Source: an uncultured Gammaproteobacteria bacterium (lineage in GTDB: Bacteria > Patescibacteriota > Microgenomatia > Daviesbacterales > UBA10151). Taken from it: a stretch of 64,000 bases of DNA. The notes beneath the pieces were generated by a model that made no database searches, was not told where the DNA came from, and saw only the letters and a program-made list of their open reading frames with translations. Position 1 is the first letter of the stretch; each line of letters starts with the position of its first letter. The translations under genes and the position numbers were made by a program. Positions 8,285-57,494 of this stretch are shown one piece after another. Location of the stretch: NCBI GenBank assembly GCA_964446685.1, contig CAYUPO010000007.1:233-64232 (forward strand). Direction: 5' to 3'.

Positions 8285-9979
8285 TTAGGTTTTTATGAAA
8301 ACAAAGGCATCTTCACCATTAGGATACTTCACTGAATCAATTATATCTCTTCCAGGGGGGACTTCTTTTGGTGTAACAATAAATAAAGTGTCTTTGCTTT
8401 GTAATATCTCTTCTGGAGTAACTGCTTTGAATTGAAATTTATCAAAATCCCTGACTGTCCCAAAATTAAATTTATCTCTTTCTGATAATTTAAGTTTCCC
8501 CTGATAATCTGACGAATTAAATGGCACTCCATTCTGCTGAGCTAACATCGCTTTGTAAAATAAAACTAAAATATATGGCTGATCATATCTGTCTGTCACT
8601 ACAACTTTAGAAAACTTTTGTTCCTGATTACCCATTTTACCAACCATCTCTTTAAATCCATATTCCCAGGCTAATGGATACCTTTTAGGTGAATGAATAT
8701 AATAACTTTCCAGATAATGAGTCATTTCAAAACCAATCCAGACAAAAATAAATATTGCCATTAGATATCCTAGACCTTTCAAATATTTTAAATTCCAAAG
8801 TTTATCAATAATCGCAGACATCCCAAGCCCCATCATCAGTACCAATGGAATTACCATCAGCAAAGCCCTGACCGCATTTGGAGTCTGATAAGTCATTGAT
8901 GATGCTAAAGGAGAAACAAATAACCAGAGTAAAACTAACCATTTAGTCTTGGATTCACTTTTTATTAAAACAAACAGACCAATTACTAAAAATAAGGCCA
9001 TTATCAGATAAAACTGCCCTGTTTCAGGTGTTTTATTGCGGATAATAGGATCCCCGTTAATAAACAAAAAATCGCCTTTAAAATGATCAACATAATGTCC
9101 AAAAAACTGGGGAGCAAAAGCCGTCAGTTTATTATGAAAAATCTTGGCTTGAGTGGACCCAAGATCTGCATGCTGACCCCTTAATTCATTTAACCTGTTT
9201 TCAGGTCCTTTATCGGATAAAAATGATAAACCGGCAAATCGGGCTGATCCTGACCCGCCCAAAAATTGAAATGCCAAAGGTACTGCTAAAACAGATAAGA
9301 CAGTCAAAATAATTACATAACTTTTTATTATTTTTTGATTATTTTTGACCTGATGAAAAAGATTTTTAAAATAAAGTAACAGCATACCTAACACCAGCAC
9401 CGGCACAACCAGTCTGGGACTTTGATAAGTGTACATGGCAATCAAAAATGACAGGAAAGAAAAAAACAGATACCACGGATCCCCCAGCTTCTTTATAAAC
9501 AAATAGACTCCCAGACATATAAAAAAAGTTGCAGCATTAGTTTCCCAACTACCTCTGGAAAAATGAATATGCCAGGGAGTTATCGCAAGAATCAGTGAAG
9601 ATGCTAAAGCAGGTCCTTTTTGGTTAAAAAGCTCTTTTGCTAGAAAATAGACTAACAAGACCGTTCCTATTCCAAATAAGGCTGATGGCAGTCTGAGTGC
9701 AAATTCATTAATCCCCAGTGACGCAATAAATGGCATCACCATATAAAAATAAAGCCCCGGTTTATAATCACCAAACGAGACAAATGACAGCGGCCACGGG
9801 TTACCATATTCATCTTTCCCTGTCTGCAACAGAGAATAAGCGTTGTAACCAATTGCTGCTTCATCCGCATTAAGGCCTGACGGATAATCCGCTATACCAG
9901 GAATCCGCAGTAAAGCCGCTAATATGACAATTAGCCCCAACAACACCTTAATACTTAATACTTTCCCCTTAATACTCAT
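8285..9979 (-). CDS. GT-C glycosyltransferase, PMT_2/GT39 (ArnT-like) family; paralog 1 of 6
   Basis: 564 aa. N-terminal ADEAAIGYNAYSLLQTGKDEYGNPWPLSFVSFGDYKPGLYFY motif, about 11 TM segments, then a soluble C-terminal domain. Confidence 0.75.
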   Translation of the reverse strand: MSIKGKVLSIKVLLGLIVILAALLRIPGIADYPSGLNADEAAIGYNAYSLLQTGKDEYGNPWPLSFVSFGDYKPGLYFYMVMPFIASLGINEFALRLPSALFGIGTVLLVYFLAKELFNQKGPALASSLILAITPWHIHFSRGSWETNAATFFICLGVYLFIKKLGDPWYLFFSFLSFLIAMYTYQSPRLVVPVLVLGMLLLYFKNLFHQVKNNQKIIKSYVIILTVLSVLAVPLAFQFLGGSGSARFAGLSFLSDKGPENRLNELRGQHADLGSTQAKIFHNKLTAFAPQFFGHYVDHFKGDFLFINGDPIIRNKTPETGQFYLIMALFLVIGLFVLIKSESKTKWLVLLWLFVSPLASSMTYQTPNAVRALLMVIPLVLMMGLGMSAIIDKLWNLKYLKGLGYLMAIFIFVWIGFEMTHYLESYYIHSPKRYPLAWEYGFKEMVGKMGNQEQKFSKVVVTDRYDQPYILVLFYKAMLAQQNGVPFNSSDYQGKLKLSERDKFNFGTVRDFDKFQFKAVTPEEILQSKDTLFIVTPKEVPPGRDIIDSVKYPNGEDAFVFIKT

Positions 9980-22406: not shown

Positions 22407-22523
22407 AAAAGAATTTCTAATTTCTAATTTCTAATTACTAGACAAATCCTAATTAAATCACTACGTTTTAGTCATTATAATTTTGGGAATTATTTAGAAA
22501 TTAGAAATTAGCGTACTTAGAAA
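22407..22523. repeat. AT-rich palindromic intergenic spacer: (TTTCTAA)3 left arm and (TTAGAAA)n right arm
   Basis: aatttctaatttctaatttctaatt ... ttagaaattagaaattag..tacttagaaattag. Same family as 57495-57644 and 62011-62133. Confidence 0.6.
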
Positions 22524-23391: not shown

Positions 23392-25767
23392 TTAAAAACG
23401 TTTCTTAAAGACTACATAACCAAGCATTCCAAAAAACAGTGCAAGTCCAACAATTGTTAGTTTTAGACCATAATCAAAAGCAGCCGGATAGTAAAATAAC
23501 TCATATTTGTGTTCACCTTTCTCTATTTTAACTCCCTGAAGCGCTGAATTGACCTGATATATTTTTTGCTTAACCCCGTCAACTTTCAATTTCCATCCTT
23601 CATCAAAACTATTTGCCACAACTATAAATGAATCCTGATCTGATTGAGCTACAAAATCTGTCTTTTGCGGTGAAACTACCAGATTTTTAATTTCTACAGC
23701 TGACGGACTGGCTGGTAAGTCATCTGAGGTCAGTACAAGACCTTTTTTTCTTGGATCAAAAGATTTTTGATCCATTTGTTCCCCCAGCTCACGCACAGAA
23801 GTGACATTTGCCAGTGAATCCAATCTATAAACCCGACCTAAAGCATGTGGATTTTCTAAAACCGCCACAGTTTTGTATTCATATATTTTTTGATAATCAG
23901 TATCCTTTAACCGGTAATTTAACAACTCTCCCGGGATAACACCTTTTTCATCCCGTTTAACAGCAATCAGATACTTAACATTTAAAGCATCCAAAAAATT
24001 TGAAGGATAATAATTAAGTTCCATAAACCTATCAATTCCTGAGTTAAATCCGCGGTCATTTACTTTATTAAAATACCTGCCATAACTTTCCAGAGCCAAT
24101 GGATCATATCCTTCAATTGATTCCAGTCCATAGGCAGTCCAGGTATTAGGAGGAAAAGCTTCCAGATCAGTCCGGGCTATTCTAAAAGGTTGTTGCTGCT
24201 GCTGTAAAAAATCTGTTACATCTGTTTTGGGAAACAGTAAATGACTCGGAACAAAAGGGTTGTGTTTCAAAAAGTAGCGGGATAAATCAAAAAACATCAA
24301 CCCAATCAGCAGATAAATAACAACTTTGTTTTTAAATTTAGTTAATATAAATAGAGTTACTAAAAGTCCGACAGGTAAAACCAAATTTTTGATAGATACC
24401 ATCAGATTTTTAAGTAACAAAATCACTTCTGTATCATCCTTATATCCATTAGTCATAAATTTAATCGTTATAATTCCTACAATAATGCCTGTAATAACGG
24501 CTAAAATGACTCCGGCAAATCGTCCTATATAGTAGCGAAACTGTTCTTCTTTCAGTTTATGTAAACCAAACCCGCTCAGTACACCGGCAGACAAACTGGT
24601 GATAAAAAATATCCGACTAGCCGAAGAATAGGTTAAAAGAGGTAAAGGCTGCGAATAAATAAACCTGGTAGCAAAAGTTTCAATAGCCAGAAAAATAGAC
24701 AAACCAAACACAACCAACCAAAAAGCAATCAGCTTAGTTCTAAATCTTCTAAACAAAAAAGGCAAAAGCAGAGGCAGTGTTAGGCTTCCCAGAAAACTAG
24801 ATTGTTCATGATAATAAATCGTATCCCAATGATTATTAGTTGTCGGATTTCCAAAAAAATCAGCCGCAAAAAATCTGACTATTTCATATGGTTTATTCAG
24901 ACCATAATTTATAGTTTTAGAATATTCCTCAACTCCTCTGACTGAATTCTGTAAATGAGTATATGTTGGAATAAACTGAATCGAACAGATCAAAACAGCA
25001 CTCACCCAAAAAAACAAAATAAATAAAAGCTTTTTTTTGCTAAATTCTTTTTCAATAAAAAATTTAAACGCTAAATATCCAAAAAAAAGTATCGTTGAAT
25101 AAATAGTCATTTGGGCAAATCCGCTTAAATATAATGTGGCAAAAGCGAGTGTCAAAATAAATAAATGCCTCATTTTGCCATTTTGCAAAAACTGTTCAAT
25201 TGAGGCTAATATAAATGGGATCATCGCCACTGCATAAACCCCTGTCATAAACTCAACCCAAGTAGTCATCAGTCCGGAAAAACTAAAAATAATAGCCCCA
25301 CCAACTGCCGCATAATTTTCCAGTTTGTAAGTCTTTAATAAATAAAACATTCCTAAAAGTGCCATTAGAGTCTGGCCAAAAATATAAAGACTCCAACCCA
25401 GTGAAACCGGCAACAAAAGCAACAGATTAAATGGAAGTAACTGAGCCGTCTGATAAGTTGCCAAAAGCGGTGATCCGGCAAAAGACAGATGATTCCAAAG
25501 CGGCCATTCCCCTTTCAGTAATAAATCCAATCCGACATATTTCCAGACTATAAATTGGGAAAAAGCATCAGAAATTAAAGCGTTTTTCACTGGAACGCCC
25601 ACCACATATCCCCATTTATAGTCAAGCCAGGGAAAATAAGCTCCGGTTAATACATCTCCCGGAAATGGCACTTTTCCCTGCAGAAAAAAAGGGTAGTATG
25701 CAGTCATTGCCAGTAAAACTAGTATTACTACCGGGTTAAATATAGATTTTAGGATTTTCATAAACAA
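23392..25767 (-). CDS. YfhO-family GT-C membrane glycosyltransferase
   Basis: 791 aa. YfhO-like N-terminus AYYPFFLQGKVPFPGDVLTGAYFPWLDYKWG, about 14 TM segments, then a C-terminal extracytoplasmic domain with a terminal TM anchor. Confidence 0.65.
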   Translation of the reverse strand: MFMKILKSIFNPVVILVLLAMTAYYPFFLQGKVPFPGDVLTGAYFPWLDYKWGYVVGVPVKNALISDAFSQFIVWKYVGLDLLLKGEWPLWNHLSFAGSPLLATYQTAQLLPFNLLLLLPVSLGWSLYIFGQTLMALLGMFYLLKTYKLENYAAVGGAIIFSFSGLMTTWVEFMTGVYAVAMIPFILASIEQFLQNGKMRHLFILTLAFATLYLSGFAQMTIYSTILFFGYLAFKFFIEKEFSKKKLLFILFFWVSAVLICSIQFIPTYTHLQNSVRGVEEYSKTINYGLNKPYEIVRFFAADFFGNPTTNNHWDTIYYHEQSSFLGSLTLPLLLPFLFRRFRTKLIAFWLVVFGLSIFLAIETFATRFIYSQPLPLLTYSSASRIFFITSLSAGVLSGFGLHKLKEEQFRYYIGRFAGVILAVITGIIVGIITIKFMTNGYKDDTEVILLLKNLMVSIKNLVLPVGLLVTLFILTKFKNKVVIYLLIGLMFFDLSRYFLKHNPFVPSHLLFPKTDVTDFLQQQQQPFRIARTDLEAFPPNTWTAYGLESIEGYDPLALESYGRYFNKVNDRGFNSGIDRFMELNYYPSNFLDALNVKYLIAVKRDEKGVIPGELLNYRLKDTDYQKIYEYKTVAVLENPHALGRVYRLDSLANVTSVRELGEQMDQKSFDPRKKGLVLTSDDLPASPSAVEIKNLVVSPQKTDFVAQSDQDSFIVVANSFDEGWKLKVDGVKQKIYQVNSALQGVKIEKGEHKYELFYYPAAFDYGLKLTIVGLALFFGMLGYVVFKKRF

Positions 25768-25983
25768 TAATAACCAAATTTGATATATCTCAAAATACTT
25801 ATTAAAAATTAACTAATTTCATTTATTGATAATTTTTGAGTCTCAAATCATCACATGTTATACCCCGTCATTCCCCTGAAAAGGGGAATCTATACAAATA
25901 ACGTTGGAAACACATTTTCGACTTGTAGATGGTTATTAATATAGTTCCCCGCTTTCGCGGGGATGACGACTCGTTTTTTTCAG

Positions 25984-26889
25984 TCAACTGGACAGCTTGT
26001 TTTTTATCTTTTGCAAAGTCCGCTTTATTGGATTTTTAGAAAGATTGGAATATTTAAACCAATATGTCAGCTCTTCTCCCTGCTCTTTCATTACATTTAC
26101 AACCTCTTCATATCCCAGCTGCTTTTTTTCAAACTGAGAAGCTTCCCAGACTTTTAACATCATCACTAAATGAGAAAAAGCCTGCAGAAAAGACAGAGCC
26201 AGACCGTGCAATCCATCTTCAAACCCACGATGGGCAAAATAACGGCTCATAAATTCACTGACTGGTTTCTTGATGACATCTTTCCAGTCAAACTGATAAC
26301 CATCATTTCTCATCTCCCGGGCTTGGACATCAGTATATCTATTCATCCTGGCAATAAACTGACCCACCGTTGTGTAATGATGATGATTTATCGCCCATCT
26401 TTCCTCAGCAGATAGTGTTAGACCCTGACCAGTCGTTTTTGGCTTACTATGAATTTTATTACTCCAACTGACATAATCTTTTTTGAAAAATCGAATATTA
26501 TAATCTGGCCACCATCCGGCAGCTTTCATCCATTTACCAAAAATCAGGTTTTTTCTGGGAACTTCAACATGTGTTACTACCCCATTCTTTTTGATAATAT
26601 CTTTAAATCTTTCTTCCAAAGTGTCCGGAATCTCTTCATCAGCATCCACCACTAGGATCCATTCATGACTTGCCTTGGAAATGGCAAAATTTCTGGCAGG
26701 CTCGACAAAACCGGTTTTTTTATGAAAAAAGACTATCGCACCAAGTTTTTTAGCAATCAGAGCGGTATCATCTTCTGAATGCATATCACAGACTAATATT
26801 TCATCTGCCCATAAAACACTTTTTATCGCCCTTTCAATATGCGAGGCTTCATTATAGGTATTAATAACAACCGAAATTTTTCCAGTCAT
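25984..26889 (-). CDS. Glycosyltransferase family 2 with C-terminal extension
   Basis: ISVVINTYNEASHI...ILVCDMHSEDDT...LVVDADEEIPDTL. Third member of this GT2 paralog set. Confidence 0.75.
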   Translation of the reverse strand: MTGKISVVINTYNEASHIERAIKSVLWADEILVCDMHSEDDTALIAKKLGAIVFFHKKTGFVEPARNFAISKASHEWILVVDADEEIPDTLEERFKDIIKKNGVVTHVEVPRKNLIFGKWMKAAGWWPDYNIRFFKKDYVSWSNKIHSKPKTTGQGLTLSAEERWAINHHHYTTVGQFIARMNRYTDVQAREMRNDGYQFDWKDVIKKPVSEFMSRYFAHRGFEDGLHGLALSFLQAFSHLVMMLKVWEASQFEKKQLGYEEVVNVMKEQGEELTYWFKYSNLSKNPIKRTLQKIKNKLSS

Positions 26890-39909: not shown

Positions 39910-39923
39910 TTTATTAACCCCAA

Positions 39924-47540: not shown

Positions 47541-48473
47541 ATGAAGAAAGTATTAATTACTGGCGTTAATGGTTTTGTTGGACAACACCTACTCTCAGTC
47601 TTAAAAGAATATTCGGTAATCGGTTTAACCCATGGTGGAGAATTATCTAACAGTCAAAATCAGGTATTTCATTCAGGAAATATTTTAGACAACCATTTTT
47701 TGGAGGAGATCATCGCCAGATACGAACCTGAATATATTGTTCATCTAGCAGCCATTGCTCCCACCAATTATAAAGATGCAGAACAGGTTTTTAAAATTAA
47801 TTTATTAGGTACAAATAATCTTTATCAGGCTGTCATCAATCTGAAATCCAAAATCTTAAATCCAAAAATTCTTTATATCTCCTCCGCCGAAGTCTATGGA
47901 AAAACCAATAATCCGGAAAACATCACCGAAGACTCACTACTTAACCCACTTAACTATTATGGCAGCAGCAAAGTTGCCGCTGACAGACTGACATTTCAAG
48001 TATCCGTCAGCCATGGCCTAAATACCGTCATAGTCAGGCCTTTTAACCATGCCGGTCCTGGTCAGGGTTTAGGATTTTTTGTTCCCGATATGTGTTCCCA
48101 AATTAGTGAGATAAAAAAAGGGACAAAACCTCCAGTTATTTCCGTCGGAAATCTTGAAAGCACCAGAGATATATCTGATGTCAGAGATGTAGTAAATGGA
48201 TACAAATTATTAATGGAAAATGACACTACCCCAGGAGATATATTTAATATCTGTTCTGGAAAAGGAATAACAATGCAGGAGTTATTAAATAAACTCATTG
48301 CTCATGCTGGTAAAGAAATAGAAATCCAATCAGATCCTGAAAAAATGCGTCCATCAGACAACCCTATCTCAGTTGGAAATCACGACAAAATAACCAACCA
48401 ATTCAACTGGAATCCCACCCACAACCTAGATCAAACATTAGAAGATACTCTCCAATATTGGCGAAATAAGTAA
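47541..48473 (+). CDS. NAD-dependent epimerase/dehydratase (SDR); GDP-4-keto-6-deoxy-D-mannose reductase (Rmd)-like
   Basis: 310 aa. MKKVLITGVNGFVGQHL Rossmann motif and YGSSKVAADRL (YxxxK). Lies directly upstream of gmd on the same strand. Confidence 0.6.
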   Translation: MKKVLITGVNGFVGQHLLSVLKEYSVIGLTHGGELSNSQNQVFHSGNILDNHFLEEIIARYEPEYIVHLAAIAPTNYKDAEQVFKINLLGTNNLYQAVINLKSKILNPKILYISSAEVYGKTNNPENITEDSLLNPLNYYGSSKVAADRLTFQVSVSHGLNTVIVRPFNHAGPGQGLGFFVPDMCSQISEIKKGTKPPVISVGNLESTRDISDVRDVVNGYKLLMENDTTPGDIFNICSGKGITMQELLNKLIAHAGKEIEIQSDPEKMRPSDNPISVGNHDKITNQFNWNPTHNLDQTLEDTLQYWRNK

Positions 48474-48501
48474 ACATACCTGGCGAAACAAGATTGTAAC
48501 T

Positions 48502-48653
48502 GTCATTGCGAGCGAAATTATTAGGAATTAACGCGCGGCAATCTGTATTTCAGAATCAACTAAGTTACAAGGTTCATTCCTGGTTGCGAGATTGCTTCGT
48601 CACTACGTTCCTCGCAATGACGGTCACCGTCTTGCTCGTTCCTCGCAATGACG
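48502..48653. repeat. Palindromic intergenic element, copy A (GTCATTGCGAGCGAA ... TTCCTCGCAATGACGG, right terminus duplicated)
   Basis: 11-bp perfect terminal inverted repeat GTCATTGCGAG/CTCGCAATGAC. Internal GCGAGATTGCTTCG arm and GACGGTCACCGTC hairpin. Lies between the Rmd-like gene and gmd. Confidence 0.7.
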
Positions 48654-48682
48654 CAAATCCAATCAACTACTATTTTACTGAT

Positions 48683-48710
48683 TAACTAATTCACTAATTC
48701 ACTAATTCAC
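48683..48710. repeat. Octanucleotide tandem repeat (CTAATTCA)3 upstream of gmd
   Basis: taactaattcactaattcactaattcac, lying 17-45 bp upstream of the gmd start. Confidence 0.6.
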
Positions 48711-48726
48711 CAGTTTCATACTGCCA

Positions 48727-49770
48727 TTGACTTTACCTCAGGAATATTTTAAGGTAATTGCAGTCATGTCAAAAACAGCAGTTATCGTTGGTATCACCTC
48801 TCAGGACGGCTCTTATCTTGCCGACTTACTTTTAGAAAAAGGCTATACCGTTGTTGGTACTATCCGCCGGTCAACCAATTTTTATCATCCCAATATTTCT
48901 CATCTTTTAGGGAAAGTAATTATTGAAGCAGCTGATCTGACAGACTCAACTTCATTAGAAGAAGTCATCAAAAAACATCAGCCGGATGAAATTTACAACA
49001 TTGCAGCTCAATCAGTTCCGGCAGACTCCTGGTCACATCCTTTTTACACTGGTGAAGTCACAGCACTAGGTGTTGTCAGGGTTTTGGAAGCAGCCCGCAA
49101 ATTTGCCCCTCACGCTAAAATTTATCAGGCCACTTCCCGGGAAGTTTTTGGTAATATTGAAGCCGAATCAGCTACTGAAGAAACACCACTGGATGCCAAT
49201 AATCCTTATGGAATTGCCAAAGCCTATGCCCATATGATGATTGGTTGTTACCGGGAATCATATGACATGTTTGCCTGTGGTGGATACCTTTTTAACCATG
49301 AATCACCTAGAAGATCTCTTCATTTTGTAACAAGAAAAATCACAGCCGGTGTCGCCTGCATTAAAAATGGCGTCAAAAACCCTCCTTTAAATGAGTTAGG
49401 TGAACCATTGGTCGATGCAGATGGCAAACTACATTTAGGACTTTTAGACGCCAAAAGAGACTGGGGATACGCCAAAGAATACGTAGAAGCTATGTGGCTA
49501 ATGCTACAACAGGATAAACCCCAGGATTTTGTGATTGGTACAAACACCGCCTACACAGTTAAAGATTTCTGTAAAGCGGCCTTTTCCGAAGTTGGTCTGA
49601 ACTGGGAAGATCATGTAGTATCCAACCAAAAATTAATGCGCCCAACCGAGATCAAAGAATTAAAAGGCGACGCGACCAAAGCCAAACAAATCCTAGGCTG
49701 GGAACCCAAAACCAGTTTCGAAGACCTAGTAAAAATAATGGTCCAAGCCGACCTCGAAAGATTTAAGTAA
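48727..49770 (+). CDS. gmd: GDP-mannose 4,6-dehydratase
   Basis: 347 aa. TAVIVGITSQDGSYLADLLLEKGYTVVGTIRRSTNF matches the Gmd N-terminus, and the overall length is right. Confidence 0.85.
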   Translation: MTLPQEYFKVIAVMSKTAVIVGITSQDGSYLADLLLEKGYTVVGTIRRSTNFYHPNISHLLGKVIIEAADLTDSTSLEEVIKKHQPDEIYNIAAQSVPADSWSHPFYTGEVTALGVVRVLEAARKFAPHAKIYQATSREVFGNIEAESATEETPLDANNPYGIAKAYAHMMIGCYRESYDMFACGGYLFNHESPRRSLHFVTRKITAGVACIKNGVKNPPLNELGEPLVDADGKLHLGLLDAKRDWGYAKEYVEAMWLMLQQDKPQDFVIGTNTAYTVKDFCKAAFSEVGLNWEDHVVSNQKLMRPTEIKELKGDATKAKQILGWEPKTSFEDLVKIMVQADLERFK

Positions 49771-49778
49771 AATTTAAC

Positions 49779-49964
49779 ATGCCTCGTCTTCAAATACTTG
49801 GATTAGTAATTATCATTTGTTCTGTATTAGTACTCGGTATACAGTTGGGACCACTAGCAAATGGCGAAATAACTTTGGCTGAATATTTTAAAGCGACCTG
49901 GCCTAGCCTTATACCGTTAGCAATTGGAATTTCAATAATTTCGGGCAAGTTTAAGAAGAGTTAA
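49779..49964 (+). CDS. Small two-TM membrane protein (hypothetical)
   Basis: 61 aa with two hydrophobic helices; starts 9 bp after the gmd stop. Confidence 0.3.
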   Translation: MPRLQILGLVIIICSVLVLGIQLGPLANGEITLAEYFKATWPSLIPLAIGISIISGKFKKS

Positions 49965-50842
49965 TTTATTTTTATTTGTAGAAATTCCTGAATTCCTTCT
50001 TTATTTGATTTTAAAATTTCAGTTCCAAATTTTTCTTCAAATTTTTTGACTGACATCCAGCTGTTATGAGGTCGAGGTGCGATTCTTCCGGCGTTAAATT
50101 CGGCGAATTTAACTGGTAATATCTTACTGTTATCCAAATTGGATTGCAGAGCTACTTCTTGTGCAAAATCGAAAGGGGTAATACTGTCAGATGAAGCAAT
50201 CTGCCAGATGCCGCCGGCTTTTTGATCCATGATCTTCTGAAAAGCTCTGACTGCAAAGTCTACAAAAACTGGTGTTATCTGTTGATCTTCTATCGCTTTT
50301 ATCTCTTTACCTTCTTTTAGACTATCCAAGAAAAAACGGGCAAAATCCTTTCTTTTTTCAAAGACAGCTGAATACGGCATCTCCGGACGGACAATCGTAA
50401 AGTTTGGATCAACTGCTAAGACAAACTCTTCGGCCTGTCTTTTGGTTTTGCCATACCAATTGACTGGGTTTGGTGCATCTTCCTCTGTATAAGGAGAATC
50501 AGATTTCTGACCATCAAATACATAGTCTGTTGAAACATGCACTAAATGCTTCCCTGACTTTTGGCATTCCTGAGCCAAAATTTGCGGGGTTAGCGAGTTC
50601 AGCCGATAGACAACCCCACCTTTATCTTCATTTTCATTCTGGCAGTTATCAACATTAGTGATAGCAACTAAATTTAAAACCATTTCGGCATCAGAACCAG
50701 CCAGATATCTGGCAATTTCTTTTTCATTAAGCAGATCAAGATCATCATGTGAAGGAGAATCAATAGTAAATGCATCCTTAGTAAGTTCTCTAAAACGAGA
50801 ACCTACCAAACCACTCCCACCTAATACAATTATTTTTTTCAT
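49961..50842 (-). CDS. rfbD: dTDP-4-dehydrorhamnose reductase
   Basis: 293 aa. MKKIIVLGGSGLVGSRF...VHVSTDYVFDG...YGKTK motifs of RmlD. Confidence 0.8.
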   Translation of the reverse strand: MKKIIVLGGSGLVGSRFRELTKDAFTIDSPSHDDLDLLNEKEIARYLAGSDAEMVLNLVAITNVDNCQNENEDKGGVVYRLNSLTPQILAQECQKSGKHLVHVSTDYVFDGQKSDSPYTEEDAPNPVNWYGKTKRQAEEFVLAVDPNFTIVRPEMPYSAVFEKRKDFARFFLDSLKEGKEIKAIEDQQITPVFVDFAVRAFQKIMDQKAGGIWQIASSDSITPFDFAQEVALQSNLDNSKILPVKFAEFNAGRIAPRPHNSWMSVKKFEEKFGTEILKSNKEGIQEFLQIKIN

Positions 50843-50869
50843 ATTTTATATCTAATTTCTACACATTAC

Positions 50870-51120
50870 GTCATTGCGAGCGAAATAACCAAGAATAAAA
50901 GGCGAAGCAATCTCGCGTCCTAGAATTACCATTGTAATAAAGTTAACTCTTGGCAACAGATTGCTTCGTAGTTCGTTCCTCACTCCTCGCAATGACGGTT
51001 CCCGTCTTGCTCACTTTGTTCACAATGACGGTTCCCGTCTTGCTCACTTTGTTCACAATGACGGTTCCCGTCTTGCTCACTTTGTTCACAATGAGCAAGC
51101 TCTCGCTACGCGATGACGGT
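50870..51120. repeat. Palindromic intergenic element, copy B (between rfbC and rfbD), carrying an internal tandem repeat
   Basis: CGTCATTGCGAGCGAAAT...GAAGCAATCTCGCG...AGATTGCTTCGT...CCTCGCAATGACGG, followed by 3 x 33 bp and CGCGATGACGG. Confidence 0.75.
50988..51086. repeat. Perfect 3 x 33-bp direct tandem repeat (CACAATGACGGTTCCCGTCTTGCTCACTTTGTT), no spacers
   Basis: Units 2 and 3 are identical; unit 1 begins CGCAATG. Each unit contains the hairpin GACGGTTCCCGTC. Confidence 0.85.
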
Positions 51121-51653
51121 TAAAGAGAGGCTTTGTATTCTAATAAACTTGGATTTTTCTGGTCTTTATCTGACAAAAGCGGATTTTCTACCGGCCAATC
51201 AATTCCAAGCTCAGGATCATTCCACATTACTCCTGTTTCCGCACCGGATTTGTAATACTGATCTACCTGATATTCATAGACAGCCTGTTCTGACAAAATC
51301 AGATATGAGTTCCCTATTCCCGCCGGCATAAAGACCTTAACCCGGTTGTTATCACCAATCTCTAAAGAAATATGCTTACCAAAAGTCTGTGAATCTTTTC
51401 TTAGATCGACCAGGGTTATAAACACCCTGCCAAATGGCACATAAATCATCTTATCCCAGGGAGCAATGTGAATTCCTCTTAAAACATCTTTTTGTGAATA
51501 AGCATGATTTTCCTGAACATGCACCCATTTTCGACCCAAAGCTTCTTCAAATTCATTTCTTCGCCATGGCTCACGGAAAAAACCTCTCTCATCTTCAAAA
51601 GTTTGTCCGCCTTCTATTATTAAAATACCTGGTATGTCGGTTGTTTTAATCAT
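51120..51653 (-). CDS. rfbC: dTDP-4-dehydrorhamnose 3,5-epimerase
   Basis: Start moved to the internal ATG giving MIKTTDIPGILIIEGGQTFEDERGFF (canonical RmlC N-terminus). The ...WNDPELGIDWP motif is present. 177 aa. Confidence 0.8.
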   Translation of the reverse strand: MIKTTDIPGILIIEGGQTFEDERGFFREPWRRNEFEEALGRKWVHVQENHAYSQKDVLRGIHIAPWDKMIYVPFGRVFITLVDLRKDSQTFGKHISLEIGDNNRVKVFMPAGIGNSYLILSEQAVYEYQVDQYYKSGAETGVMWNDPELGIDWPVENPLLSDKDQKNPSLLEYKASL

Positions 51654-52830: not shown

Positions 52831-52912
52831 AATATTTTTCGAACGATAGTGAGAAATTTCCTAAAAAATAAAGAATTTTCTCGGATACCCTCGAAAAATA
52901 TTTAACAAATCT

Positions 52913-55555: not shown

Positions 55556-56635
55556 ATGAAAATCCTACACTTCTTTAAATTCTGGAAACTTCCTAAAAAA
55601 ATCTGGATACCACTTATTTTGATCATCATTGTCGCTTTATATTTTGCTTTCAAACCGGAGACTCCAAAGGAACAGCCCGAAATAGAAAAAGTCACCCGTC
55701 AGGATATTCAATCAGTTATTTCCGCCTCAGGTACTCTAACGGGAGCTGATGTAGCGACTCTCAAATTCATTCAGGGCGGAAAACTGTCATACATCAATGT
55801 CAAAGAGGGTGATCGGGTCAAAAAAGGTCAAACTATCGCTGGACTTGATACCAAAGCTTTATCAATCCAGCTTCAACAAGCCAGAAATACCTGGCTGGCT
55901 AAAGAAGCAACAGCCAAACAAGTGGAAGATGAAGTTAAAGACCATGCTTCAGATGAAAATTTTGAACAAAAAGAAGCCCGGGTCGCAGCTCAAACAGCCA
56001 GAGATAACGCTTATGATGCAATCAGAGCGGCTGAACGAGCATTTGAAGATGCAGTAATCACCTCCCCCATCTCAGGAATTGTTACTCAGTCCTCTCCATT
56101 AGCCGGTCAAAATATCTCCGGAGCTGATGTCGTGGCTCAGGTGGTTGATGATTCAACGATTTATTTTGATACAGAAATAGATGAAGCTGACATTGGTCAG
56201 ATCAAGACCGGAATGCTGGCTCAAATTTCACTTGATGCTTACTCTGATCAAAAATTCACCGGAACCGTTGAAAAAATTATCCCCAGCACCAAAACCACCA
56301 CATCCGGAGCAACAGTGGTTATTGTCAGAATCAATATCAATAAATCTGACCTGACTTTTGTGAACGGATTAAATGGTCAGGCAGAAGTAATTACAAAAGA
56401 GGAAAAATCAGTCTTAGCCATATCACCGGATGCCATCAGAGAGGATAATATGGTTTATGTTAAACAAGGTGAAAATTTTCAGCTAGTCAAAGTAGAAACA
56501 GGACTTAGTTCAGACAATGCTATTGAGATCACCTCAGGACTGAATGAAAACCAGGAAGTTGTAACCAATCCTGAATCAATTATTCCCCCATCAACTAATC
56601 CAATCACCAGATTTATTCAAAATGTTACAAGTTAA
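55556..56635 (+). CDS. Efflux-pump periplasmic adaptor (HlyD/MacA-like membrane fusion protein)
   Basis: 359 aa. N-terminal TM segment, biotin-lipoyl-like VKEGDRVKKGQTIAGLD, a coiled-coil region and a beta-barrel-like C-terminus. Confidence 0.7.
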   Translation: MKILHFFKFWKLPKKIWIPLILIIIVALYFAFKPETPKEQPEIEKVTRQDIQSVISASGTLTGADVATLKFIQGGKLSYINVKEGDRVKKGQTIAGLDTKALSIQLQQARNTWLAKEATAKQVEDEVKDHASDENFEQKEARVAAQTARDNAYDAIRAAERAFEDAVITSPISGIVTQSSPLAGQNISGADVVAQVVDDSTIYFDTEIDEADIGQIKTGMLAQISLDAYSDQKFTGTVEKIIPSTKTTTSGATVVIVRININKSDLTFVNGLNGQAEVITKEEKSVLAISPDAIREDNMVYVKQGENFQLVKVETGLSSDNAIEITSGLNENQEVVTNPESIIPPSTNPITRFIQNVTS

Positions 56636-56661: not shown

Positions 56662-56784
56662 CGTCTTTGCGAACGAATTAACAAAGCTTTAACGTGAAGC
56701 AATCTCGCAACTGGGAATGAACAAGGCTACTAAGGAAGAACTTAAGTTTCGGATTGCTTCGTCACTTCGTTCCTCGCAATGACG
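56662..56784. repeat. Palindromic intergenic element, copy C (degenerate left terminus CGTCTTTGCGAACGAA), between the adaptor and ABC ATPase genes
   Basis: ...GAAGCAATCTCGCA...GGATTGCTTCGTCACTTCGTTCCTCGCAATGACG. The right arm is near-identical to copies A and B. Confidence 0.65.
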
Positions 56785-56804: not shown

Positions 56805-57494
56805 ATGTTAATACAACTAAAAAATATAAATAAAATTTACCAACTAGATGAAGATCTGACTTTTCAGGCGCTCAAGGATATCAATCTTAACATTGAGAAA
56901 GGTGAATTTGTGGCGATTGTCGGACCGTCAGGTTCAGGTAAATCTACCCTGATGAATATGATCGGACTACTTGACCGTCCAACATCAGGTACTTTCGAAC
57001 TCGATGGTCAAAATGTCGCTCATCTAAAAGATGATCATCTGGCTGAACTGAGAAACAAAAAAATTGGCTTTGTTTTTCAAAGCTTTAACTTGCTTGCCCG
57101 TACTTCAGCAGTTGATAACGTTTCTCTACCTCTTATTTATACCGGTATTCCCCGCCAGGAAAGATTAAGAAAAGCTAAAAAAGCGCTTGATCAGGTCGGT
57201 TTATCAGATAAATACAACTCTAAACCAAACCAGCTATCAGGTGGTCAGCAGCAACGTGTAGCCATTGCCAGAGCCATTGTCACAAATCCCGATATTATTC
57301 TGGCTGATGAACCAACCGGAAACTTAGACAGTAAAAGCGGCGCTGAAGCGATGGAAATGTTGGAAAATCTGCACAATGATGGCAAGACAATAATCCTGAT
57401 TACCCATGATTCAGTCACCGCCAACCACGCCAAAAGAATCATCAGAGTTAAAGACGGCGAAATAACCGATGAAAAAGGAAAGGATACTAAATAA
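56805..57494 (+). CDS. ABC transporter ATP-binding protein, MacB/LolD-type
   Basis: 229 aa. Walker A GPSGSGKST, signature LSGGQQQRVAIARA, Walker B IILADEPTGNLD. Confidence 0.85.
   Translation: MLIQLKNINKIYQLDEDLTFQALKDINLNIEKGEFVAIVGPSGSGKSTLMNMIGLLDRPTSGTFELDGQNVAHLKDDHLAELRNKKIGFVFQSFNLLARTSAVDNVSLPLIYTGIPRQERLRKAKKALDQVGLSDKYNSKPNQLSGGQQQRVAIARAIVTNPDIILADEPTGNLDSKSGAEAMEMLENLHNDGKTIILITHDSVTANHAKRIIRVKDGEITDEKGKDTK

Follow-up and report, generated by a model that had tools for sequence, protein, structure and literature searches.

Intercistronic palindromes in a probably Patescibacteria-like genome are likely inverted pairs of CGTC-tagged REP modules of a subtype associated with GIY-YIG nuclease genes

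Three imperfect palindromes of 122-129 bp, with ends GTCATTGCGAG/CTCGCAATGAC, were found in intercistronic spacers of a 64-kb stretch of contig CAYUPO010000007.1 (64,000 nucleotides; this whole stretch is called the window below, and coordinates are positions within it). These elements are likely to be inverted pairs of CGTC-tagged repetitive extragenic palindrome (REP) modules of a 'ATTGCGAG' subtype, within a superfamily that comprises the CGTC REPs and the NTS and Ssn-related motifs (SRM) and is linked to the GIY-YIG nuclease Ssn. The element class has already been described; new are the sequence subtype and the host lineage, which is probably Microgenomates-like and thus part of the candidate phyla radiation (CPR). 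Family membership of the window elements is assigned here from their sequence.

CGTC-tagged REPs consist of an unpaired CGTC tag (variants TGTC and CCTC), an 8-9-bp stem starting A-T, T-A, a loop of 4-5 nt and, after the stem, a short tail. Most are arranged as inverted dimers, separated by spacers of 20-100 bp and located between unidirectional or convergent open reading frames (ORFs), and are known in five phyla, chiefly Alphaproteobacteria; the Neisseria dRS3 and the Rickettsia RPE-4 and RPE-6 repeats belong to them, and 'no dedicated transposase' was found for the group (Di Nocera, De Gregorio & Rocco, 2013, BMC Genomics 14:522; PMC3733652). The Neisseria NTS, CGTCATTCCCGCGMAVGCGGGAATCYRG, and the wider SRM were defined in a study of SsnA, a 94-amino-acid single-domain GIY-YIG protein (cd10448) that binds and cuts only single-stranded DNA (ssDNA), on one strand and upstream of the motif (Chenal et al., 2025, Nat Commun 16:2388; PMC11893778). 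In the Neisseria and Wolbachia cases examined there, Ssn bound the motif only in ssDNA and cut one strand a few nt upstream of the CGTC tag, and SsnA reduced transformation by NTS-flanked DNA. Homologues of ssnA had an SRM nearby in 71% of cases and on both sides in 42%. The NTS-ssnA-NTS arrangement was likened by its authors to an insertion sequence; mobility was not shown there (Chenal et al., 2025).

Results

The core dimer of copy A (48501-48622) starts with a left arm at 48501-48546, which is tagged TGTC and contains an AT-rich insert of 24 nt, and continues through a decayed palindromic centre to the right arm at 48588-48622 (reverse complement CGTCATTGCGAGGAACGTAGTGACGAAGCAATC). An extra partial module on the minus strand (48623-48653; reverse complement CGTCATTGCGAGGAACGAGCAAGACGGTGAC) follows head-to-tail. 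The core dimer of copy B (50869-50997; left arm 50869-50916, right arm 50957-50997) runs into a minus-strand tandem array of variant modules at 50990-51094, in which a 33-bp unit (reverse complement CGTCATTGTGAACAAAGTGAGCAAGACGGGAAC) is repeated 3.2 times at 100% identity, and ends with a degenerate minus-strand module (51095-51119) that adjoins the stop codon of rfbC at 51120. Copy C is a core dimer at 56662-56784, with a degenerate left arm (56662-56709; CGTCTTTGCGAA) and a right arm at 56750-56784. A preliminary description of this DNA had located the three copies correctly; their limits were refined to 48501-48653 (including the extra module), 50869-51119 and 56662-56784.

Alignment of the six arms showed that each consists of (C/T)GTCATTGCGAG, an insert and CGAAGCAATC, followed by a tail of 3-4 nt, which gives a module of 35-48 nt. 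The two arms of each copy are inverted relative to each other with their tags pointing outward, and the tag is CGTC in five of the six arms and TGTC in the remaining one. The module stem begins ATT...AAT and is continuously paired only over ATTGC/GCAAT (5 bp). The 11-mer termini GTCATTGCGAG/CTCGCAATGAC occurred six times exactly in the 64 kb and eight times with at most one mismatch, as compared to 0.49 occurrences in shuffled sequence with one mismatch allowed, and the inner motif GATTGCTTCGT occurred six times (1.05 expected). An nhmmer search of the window with a profile of the arms yielded no additional copies. Copies A and C have, in their right arms (48588-48622 and 56750-56784, respectively), an insert ending in AGTGACG, a complement of the CGTCA(T)T tag. 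As a consequence, the ssDNA fold predicted for these arms pairs the tag itself (CGTCATTGCG/CGTAGTGACG); canonical motifs leave it unpaired.

Compared with the left arm of copy A, those of the other two copies showed 83% and 70% identity; between copies A and C, identity of the right arms was 97%. In all three copies the left arm holds an AT-rich insert of 24-27 nt and the right arm a shorter insert of 11-17 nt. This shared heterodimer design indicates that all three go back to a single founder dimer, copied in its entirety. The long-insert arm lies on the left of every copy, and the common plus-strand orientation pointed out in the preliminary description was accordingly found again; with three copies, such a coincidence has a probability of one in four. 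The complete identity of the 33-bp units of copy B indicates recent change.

Modules of this type were common elsewhere. The arm pattern GATTGCTTCG-N(4-30)-CTCGCAATGAC was found in at least 120 stretches in IMG/VR and in at least 120 stretches in GTDB contigs with one genome per species. The matches listed comprised 353 module matches with 175 distinct sequences, and the figures that follow refer to these. A short form of the module was present in nearly every bacterial phylum sampled and on phage contigs. Titled records came from Alpha-, Gamma- and Deltaproteobacteria, Chloroflexi, Bacteroidota, Cyanobacteria, Melainabacteria, Patescibacteria, Zixibacteria, Planctomycetota, Ignavibacteria, Firmicutes, Campylobacterota (Helicobacter) and others, with many from Bradyrhizobium. 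The most common insert was CGNAG, yielding GCGNAGC, the GNA-triloop DNA mini-hairpin. Of the inserts of at least 9 nt, 30% were closed by a stem of 4 bp or more, with many different sequences, as compared to 1.2% in shuffles. Tags-outward dimers numbered 130, with a modal length of 80-89 nt that places the window copies in the upper tail, and the base preceding GTCATT was C in 86 of them (66%) and T in 42 (32%).

The right arm of copy A showed 91-100% identity over 30-36 nt to modules of very different taxa, and the sequence of copy B was also present in a Logan contig (L001). A BLAST search of copy C against plasmids matched only a 34-nt arm, on Methylosinus and Legionella plasmids. Relatives were thus very numerous, and the earlier proposal of a DNA-level, REP-like dispersed palindromic repeat was upheld over chance similarity. 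Modules also occurred as singletons and in head-to-tail arrays, which in one contig (L047) resembled that of copy B. A tail-first placement of singletons just 5' of ribosome-binding sites was suspected, and the counts did not confirm it (23 tail-side and 39 head-side cases; n = 145).

Clustering of genes adjacent to modules gave no recurrent family, and eight of ten cluster representatives that were checked were phage structural proteins. Modules were located between phage structural genes in the IMG/VR contigs L016, L037, L004, L051, L062, L055, L040 and L074, in which portal, major head, terminase large subunit, tail and head-tail adaptor genes were called with PHROGs. Phage contigs in IMG/VR carried up to six module copies each. 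No transposase was identified among the checked genes adjoining modules, with no dedicated RAYT profile search run.

These data bear on whether the elements are classical MITEs (miniature transposable elements with inverted repeats), that is, internally deleted insertion-sequence derivatives mobilized in trans via their terminal inverted repeats; the preliminary description had favoured a MITE- or REP-like mobile element. Terminal inverted repeats of 11-12 bp, a size of about 125 bp, insertion relative to related genomes and the existence of longer versions with an ORF between the same ends (see below) would all fit this explanation. However, the enclosed ORF encodes a 96-amino-acid GIY-YIG nuclease and not a known transposase, the module-adjacent families that were checked were those of phages, and the occurrence of singletons and head-to-tail arrays is unlike the behaviour of MITEs. 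Target-site duplications did not exceed the permuted control in the 130 dimers; none was seen at copies A, B and C, nor was a transposase with matching ends detected. The strict MITE interpretation was consequently abandoned as highly improbable.

When the fetched loci were scanned for small GIY-YIG proteins, an ORF of 96 amino acids was found exactly between inverted modules in two unrelated metagenome-assembled genomes (MAGs), one of Planctomycetota (L182) and one of Pseudomonadota (L241). Both ORFs encode a single Pfam GIY-YIG domain (PF01541; E 6e-18 and 2e-13, respectively). A metagenome scan with an alignment of these two proteins yielded 486 confirmed relatives, of which the best 80 were used for counts of flanking motifs. 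Within this set, the left motif GTCATTNNGAG occurred at most 250 bp upstream of 39 of the 80 genes and the right motif CTCNNAATGAC at most 250 bp downstream of 44, so that 30 of the 80 genes were bracketed by both. The subtype was present somewhere in the locus in 59 of the 80 cases, and the motifs adjoining the gene in three further loci were exclusively canonical ones that fit the SRM pattern. Other loci carried a complete dimer on each side of the GIY-YIG gene or 45-bp arrays of right ends. In the locus L276, the two modules bracketing the GIY-YIG gene were 97% and 94% identical to the right arm of copy A. These observations independently reproduced the Ssn association for the ATTGCGAG subtype; the linkage to GIY-YIG genes concerns the subtype in general, not this genome in particular.

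Arrays of tandem right-end modules resembling that of copy B adjoined GIY-YIG genes in L260, L262, L265 and L269. These loci are nearly identical, with 4, 3, 5 and 3 modules of 45 bp upstream of the gene and 1, 1, 2 and 2 downstream, respectively, which points to rapid change in array length, in parallel with copy B and its 33-bp array. The sole fetched CPR locus with a GIY-YIG remnant near the motif was from a Candidatus Doudnabacteria MAG (L136, 4089-4923), in which a truncated ORF (approximately 43 amino acids after Met) is separated by about 200 bp from a GTCATTGCGAG ... CTCGCAATGAC pair; between the members of this pair, short tandem repeats form a complex array.

Assignment of the flanking proteins to the Ssn clade is indirectly supported by their length of 96 amino acids, by their matching only GIY-YIG in Pfam and by the SRM-matching motifs that flank relatives. 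A UPF0213-type identity was rejected, as a query of the E. coli YhbQ type matched these proteins only weakly.

Each copy in the window separates two co-oriented genes, as stated in the preliminary description. Copy A is preceded by a gene for an Rmd-like NAD-dependent sugar epimerase/reductase (47541-48473, plus strand), whose syntenic counterparts in L323-L326 have Pfam Epimerase/GDP_Man_Dehyd matches, and followed by a GDP-mannose 4,6-dehydratase-like gene (gmd; 48766-49770, plus strand, with ATG at 48766 as the likely start). Copy B has rfbC, encoding dTDP-4-dehydrorhamnose 3,5-epimerase (51120-51653, minus strand), upstream and rfbD, encoding dTDP-4-dehydrorhamnose reductase (49961-50842, minus strand), downstream. 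Copy C lies downstream of a gene for a MacA/HlyD-like periplasmic adaptor (55556-56635, plus strand) and upstream of one for the ABC transporter ATPase of a MacB-type system (56805-57494, plus strand).

Syntenic relatives were obtained via RfbD homologues (80% RfbD identity in L323, 79% in L324 and L325, 71% in L326-L328). Across the shared 15-20 kb, neither the termini nor the arm profile matched L323-L328, except for weak fragments in L326. The rfbC and rfbD genes overlap as TAATG in L323 and abut in L324, the spacer between the MacA and ATPase genes is 6 nt in both, and the rmd-gmd spacers of the relatives have no element. Since the three sites are empty in the relatives, gain in the lineage of the window is the parsimonious interpretation, and the elements are lineage-specific insertions relative to these genomes. 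Intergenic flanks of the relatives were too diverged from the window to fix duplications or the exact points of insertion. Gene junctions that are tight in the relatives must have been broken by the insertions, and as a by-product expression is likely to be affected to some extent. In L322, with an RfbD that is 94% identical, an arm is present at site A, while inner sequence and flank differ; unrelated sequence replaces the stretch 3' of copy A. The rfbC-rfbD spacer of L326 (7864-8000) carries a different, GC-rich palindromic repeat, ccctctcccccgaggggagaggg ..., indicating that another hairpin family colonized this junction independently.

All core dimers were predicted to fold as one long hairpin on both strands (-34.5 to -51.7 kcal/mol; z -2.6 to -5.9), in agreement with the stem-loop that had been postulated for either strand. 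The centres of approximately 40 nt, earlier described as variable, are not loops but decayed extensions of the palindrome: the right inner part of copy A (48572-48598) is 93% complementary to the left inner part of copy C (56696-56722). Two further details of the earlier description were corrected: the outer stem of copy C contains two uncompensated mismatches (CGTCTTTGCGAA), and the inner left repeat of copy A is degenerate (GCGGCAATCTGT). The long hairpin is decaying and not maintained.

Selected RNA elements, acting as intercistronic stabilizers, RNase III-type processing sites or attenuators that uncouple cistrons, have been proposed for REP and bacterial interspersed mosaic elements of E. 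coli and for Neisseria Correia elements, and many REPs have been argued to act as RNA (Di Nocera et al., 2013). In the window, every copy is necessarily co-transcribed with the genes on either side, the RNA folds are strong, and insertion between genes that overlap, abut or are 6 nt apart in relatives necessarily alters their coupling. However, the stems decay without compensatory changes, as shown by the mismatches of copy C and of copy A's inner stem, and this argues against a selected RNA structure. The mRNA has an A-rich left arm in copies A and C and a U-rich one in copy B, so that the RNA differs between operons, and the relatives L323-L328 manage without the elements. No U-run follows the hairpins of copies A and C on the transcribed strand, a single weak terminator-like site of five pairs lies inside copy B, and terminator-like sites in the region numbered 12, as compared to 8.2 ± 2.8 in shuffled sequence; the terminator or attenuator function put forward earlier was therefore not upheld. 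Rfam gave no relevant match at E ≤ 1 in 44-60 kb and none at gathering score in the whole window, the lone chance-level match being mir-310 at 52832-52901 (E 0.64), outside the elements. Finally, the conserved blocks are identical across phyla regardless of gene context, which indicates constraint at the level of DNA or protein. An RNA function as the reason for the presence of the elements is consequently considered unlikely, and their transcription as strong hairpins within operons is most likely a tolerated by-product.

A canonical, NTS-like SRM dimer was also present in the window, at 25866-25968, with outward-pointing tags (CGTCATTCCCCTGAAAAGGGGAATCTAT on the plus and CGTCATCCCCGCGAAAGCGGGGAACTAT on the minus strand) and a 47-nt spacer. 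Its two neighbours, both on the minus strand, are a glycosyltransferase-like gene (25984-26889) and a gene for a 791-amino-acid membrane protein (23392-25767). Both of its halves match the published SRM search pattern, HGTCWYN(0-2)YYVSBRHN(0-5)WNVSBRGN(0-2)RNCYNB (Chenal et al., 2025), which had three matches in the window and 0.14 in shuffles. As ssDNA, the motif folded with -7.3 kcal/mol (z -3.9).

The nearest named homologues of the window RfbD, at approximately 44-53% identity, belong to Candidatus Daviesbacteria and the Microgenomates group; judging from these names, the host is probably a Microgenomates-like bacterium of the CPR/Patescibacteria. The window has a GC content of 36%; this value and the heptamer tandem repeats had suggested a Nostocales cyanobacterium, a reading that was rejected in view of the RfbD homologues. 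Its GC skew is uniformly and strongly negative (about -0.1 to -0.24) up to approximately 56 kb and near zero thereafter, and the palindromic elements all lie within or at the edge of the skewed part (1-56000). Short tandem repeats with units of 7-8 nt are frequent in intergenic DNA. They include the stretch at 48669-48710, five copies of ACTAATTC directly 3' of copy A, CTTAATA at 9947 and 35981, ACTTATC at 39923, and TTAGAAA at 22494, 57584 and 62098.

Discussion

The window elements resemble CGTC REPs in their CGTC or TGTC tag, the A-T, T-A start of the stem, a short tail and their organization in inverted dimers, often heterodimers. As with these REPs, they lie between unidirectional genes, occasionally form clusters and have no associated transposase, and abundance in Bradyrhizobium is common to CGTC REPs and the present module scan. 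They differ from CGTC REPs in having 5 instead of 8-9 continuous base pairs, in carrying inserts of 11-27 nt where a loop of 4-5 nt was described (in the widespread short form, the centre is CGNAG, of 5 nt), in a tail of CTCG, CTGT or CCGA instead of CCA, and in a CPR-like host; CPR was not covered in the 2013 study. The supplements of that paper contained no matching strings, and searches of full-text literature with literal motif strings returned only unrelated papers, mostly eukaryotic or clinical. A known element, the possibility that the preliminary description had set against its own proposal, was thus recognized through the literature (PMC3733652; PMC11893778) and not through Rfam, in which no family matched.

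With NTS and SRM, the window modules share the outer frame CGTCATT....AATC(Y)(R)G and its directionality. Bracketing of a single-domain GIY-YIG gene of approximately 95 amino acids was similarly frequent (30 of 80 here, 42% for NTS/SRM), copies of both cluster around cell-envelope genes, and a canonical SRM dimer occurs in the same window. The main text of the SRM study makes no mention of Patescibacteria or of such repeats on phage genomes (PMC11893778).

The REPIN/RAYT system (Bertels & Rainey, 2011; Nunvar, 2010) is similar in the broad lines of how it works. There, as in the window elements and their relatives, two short palindromic modules in inverted orientation pair into a single long hairpin, dimers are copied whole without target-site duplication, and a single-copy gene for a nuclease acting on ssDNA is flanked by the same modules. 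The differences are that the tag is CGTC and not GTAG, that the protein is a GIY-YIG nuclease and not an HUH/Y1 transposase, and that REPIN/RAYT sequences are lineage-specific, whereas the present module is nearly identical across phyla. The elements are also similar to the Correia elements (CREE/NEMIS) of Neisseria and to other MITEs in being intergenic palindromes of approximately 100-150 bp that are co-transcribed and form hairpins. Correia elements have 26-bp terminal inverted repeats, a TA target duplication and sites for integration host factor and RNase III; none of these features was seen in the window elements.

Several observations weigh against assignment to the Ssn-linked superfamily. 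The published SRM pattern was matched by none of the six window arms, nor by the generic short form of the module; the arms fail it because their stem begins with GC where the pattern requires YY (two pyrimidines). Folded singly as ssDNA, the arms gave weak structures of -2.6 to -5.9 kcal/mol (z +0.7 to -1.7), as compared to -9.0 kcal/mol (z -5.5) for the Neisseria NTS, so that the requirement for a hairpin core may fail for the ATTGCGAG subtype. The figure for association with GIY-YIG genes is biased somewhat upward, since the query proteins were first found beside the motif. The flanking GIY-YIG proteins matched no specific NCBIfam family and had a UPF0213 protein as best match in the PDB (E 4e-4). 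Moreover, mobility driven by Ssn has never been demonstrated to date, and no GIY-YIG gene was found within the 64-kb window, even with a family profile.

This last result could also mean that the copies are inert relics, left when 'module-ssn-module' cassettes inserted and subsequently lost the nuclease gene by deletion, so that the remnants have neither a present partner nor activity. Differences of 17-30% between left arms, the degenerate left end of copy C and centres that are decayed palindromes would be expected of such remnants, and the centres of the three copies showed no similarity to ssn-flanking DNA or to any other DNA that was fetched. However, the shared heterodimer design, including the AT-rich insert of the left arm, shows that ORF-less dimers were copied as such, the identical array units of copy B imply recent change, and even a relative as close as L322 differs at site A. 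In view of these signs of copying and turnover, an origin as inert relics is judged improbable.

Taken together, we consider it likely that the window elements are inverted pairs of CGTC-tagged REP modules. Across bacteria, single-domain GIY-YIG nucleases of approximately 95 amino acids (Ssn) probably recognize the modules that flank their genes, and recognition by an Ssn-type nuclease acting on ssDNA may be what has preserved the conserved blocks. In a dimer, each strand would contain one module in the cleavable sense. A founder heterodimer was probably copied as a whole unit into intercistronic spacers, which the copies entered, in this CPR-like lineage, after the split from relatives with approximately 80% RfbD identity. 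An Ssn-type nuclease may be encoded in the host genome, act on the copies and share in their spread.

A more far-reaching proposal, which we put forward only tentatively and regard as doubtful, is that dimers of the ATTGCGAG type are non-autonomous partners of a mobile element whose only protein is an Ssn-type nuclease of approximately 96 amino acids, carried between phyla by phages and currently active in the CPR lineage. Such an element would travel between phyla via phages, given that the module is almost identical across phyla and is found among phage structural genes.

With the window elements, the CGTC-REP/SRM superfamily would gain a CPR/Microgenomates-like host and a widespread ATTGCGAG subtype that was overlooked by the published pattern. 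Gain of whole dimers within essential sugar-nucleotide and efflux operons is an indirect sign of continuing spread of the repeats, a question that neither of the earlier studies settled (PMC3733652; PMC11893778). The loci in which modules lie among phage genes or bracket GIY-YIG genes provide material for asking whether Ssn nucleases mobilize their motifs. CPR bacteria depend on DNA uptake, and an Ssn/SRM system that limits recombination of incoming ssDNA could therefore matter to them. If the dimers do prove to be non-autonomous partners of a nuclease-only element, that element would belong to a novel class of transposable or homing elements in bacteria.

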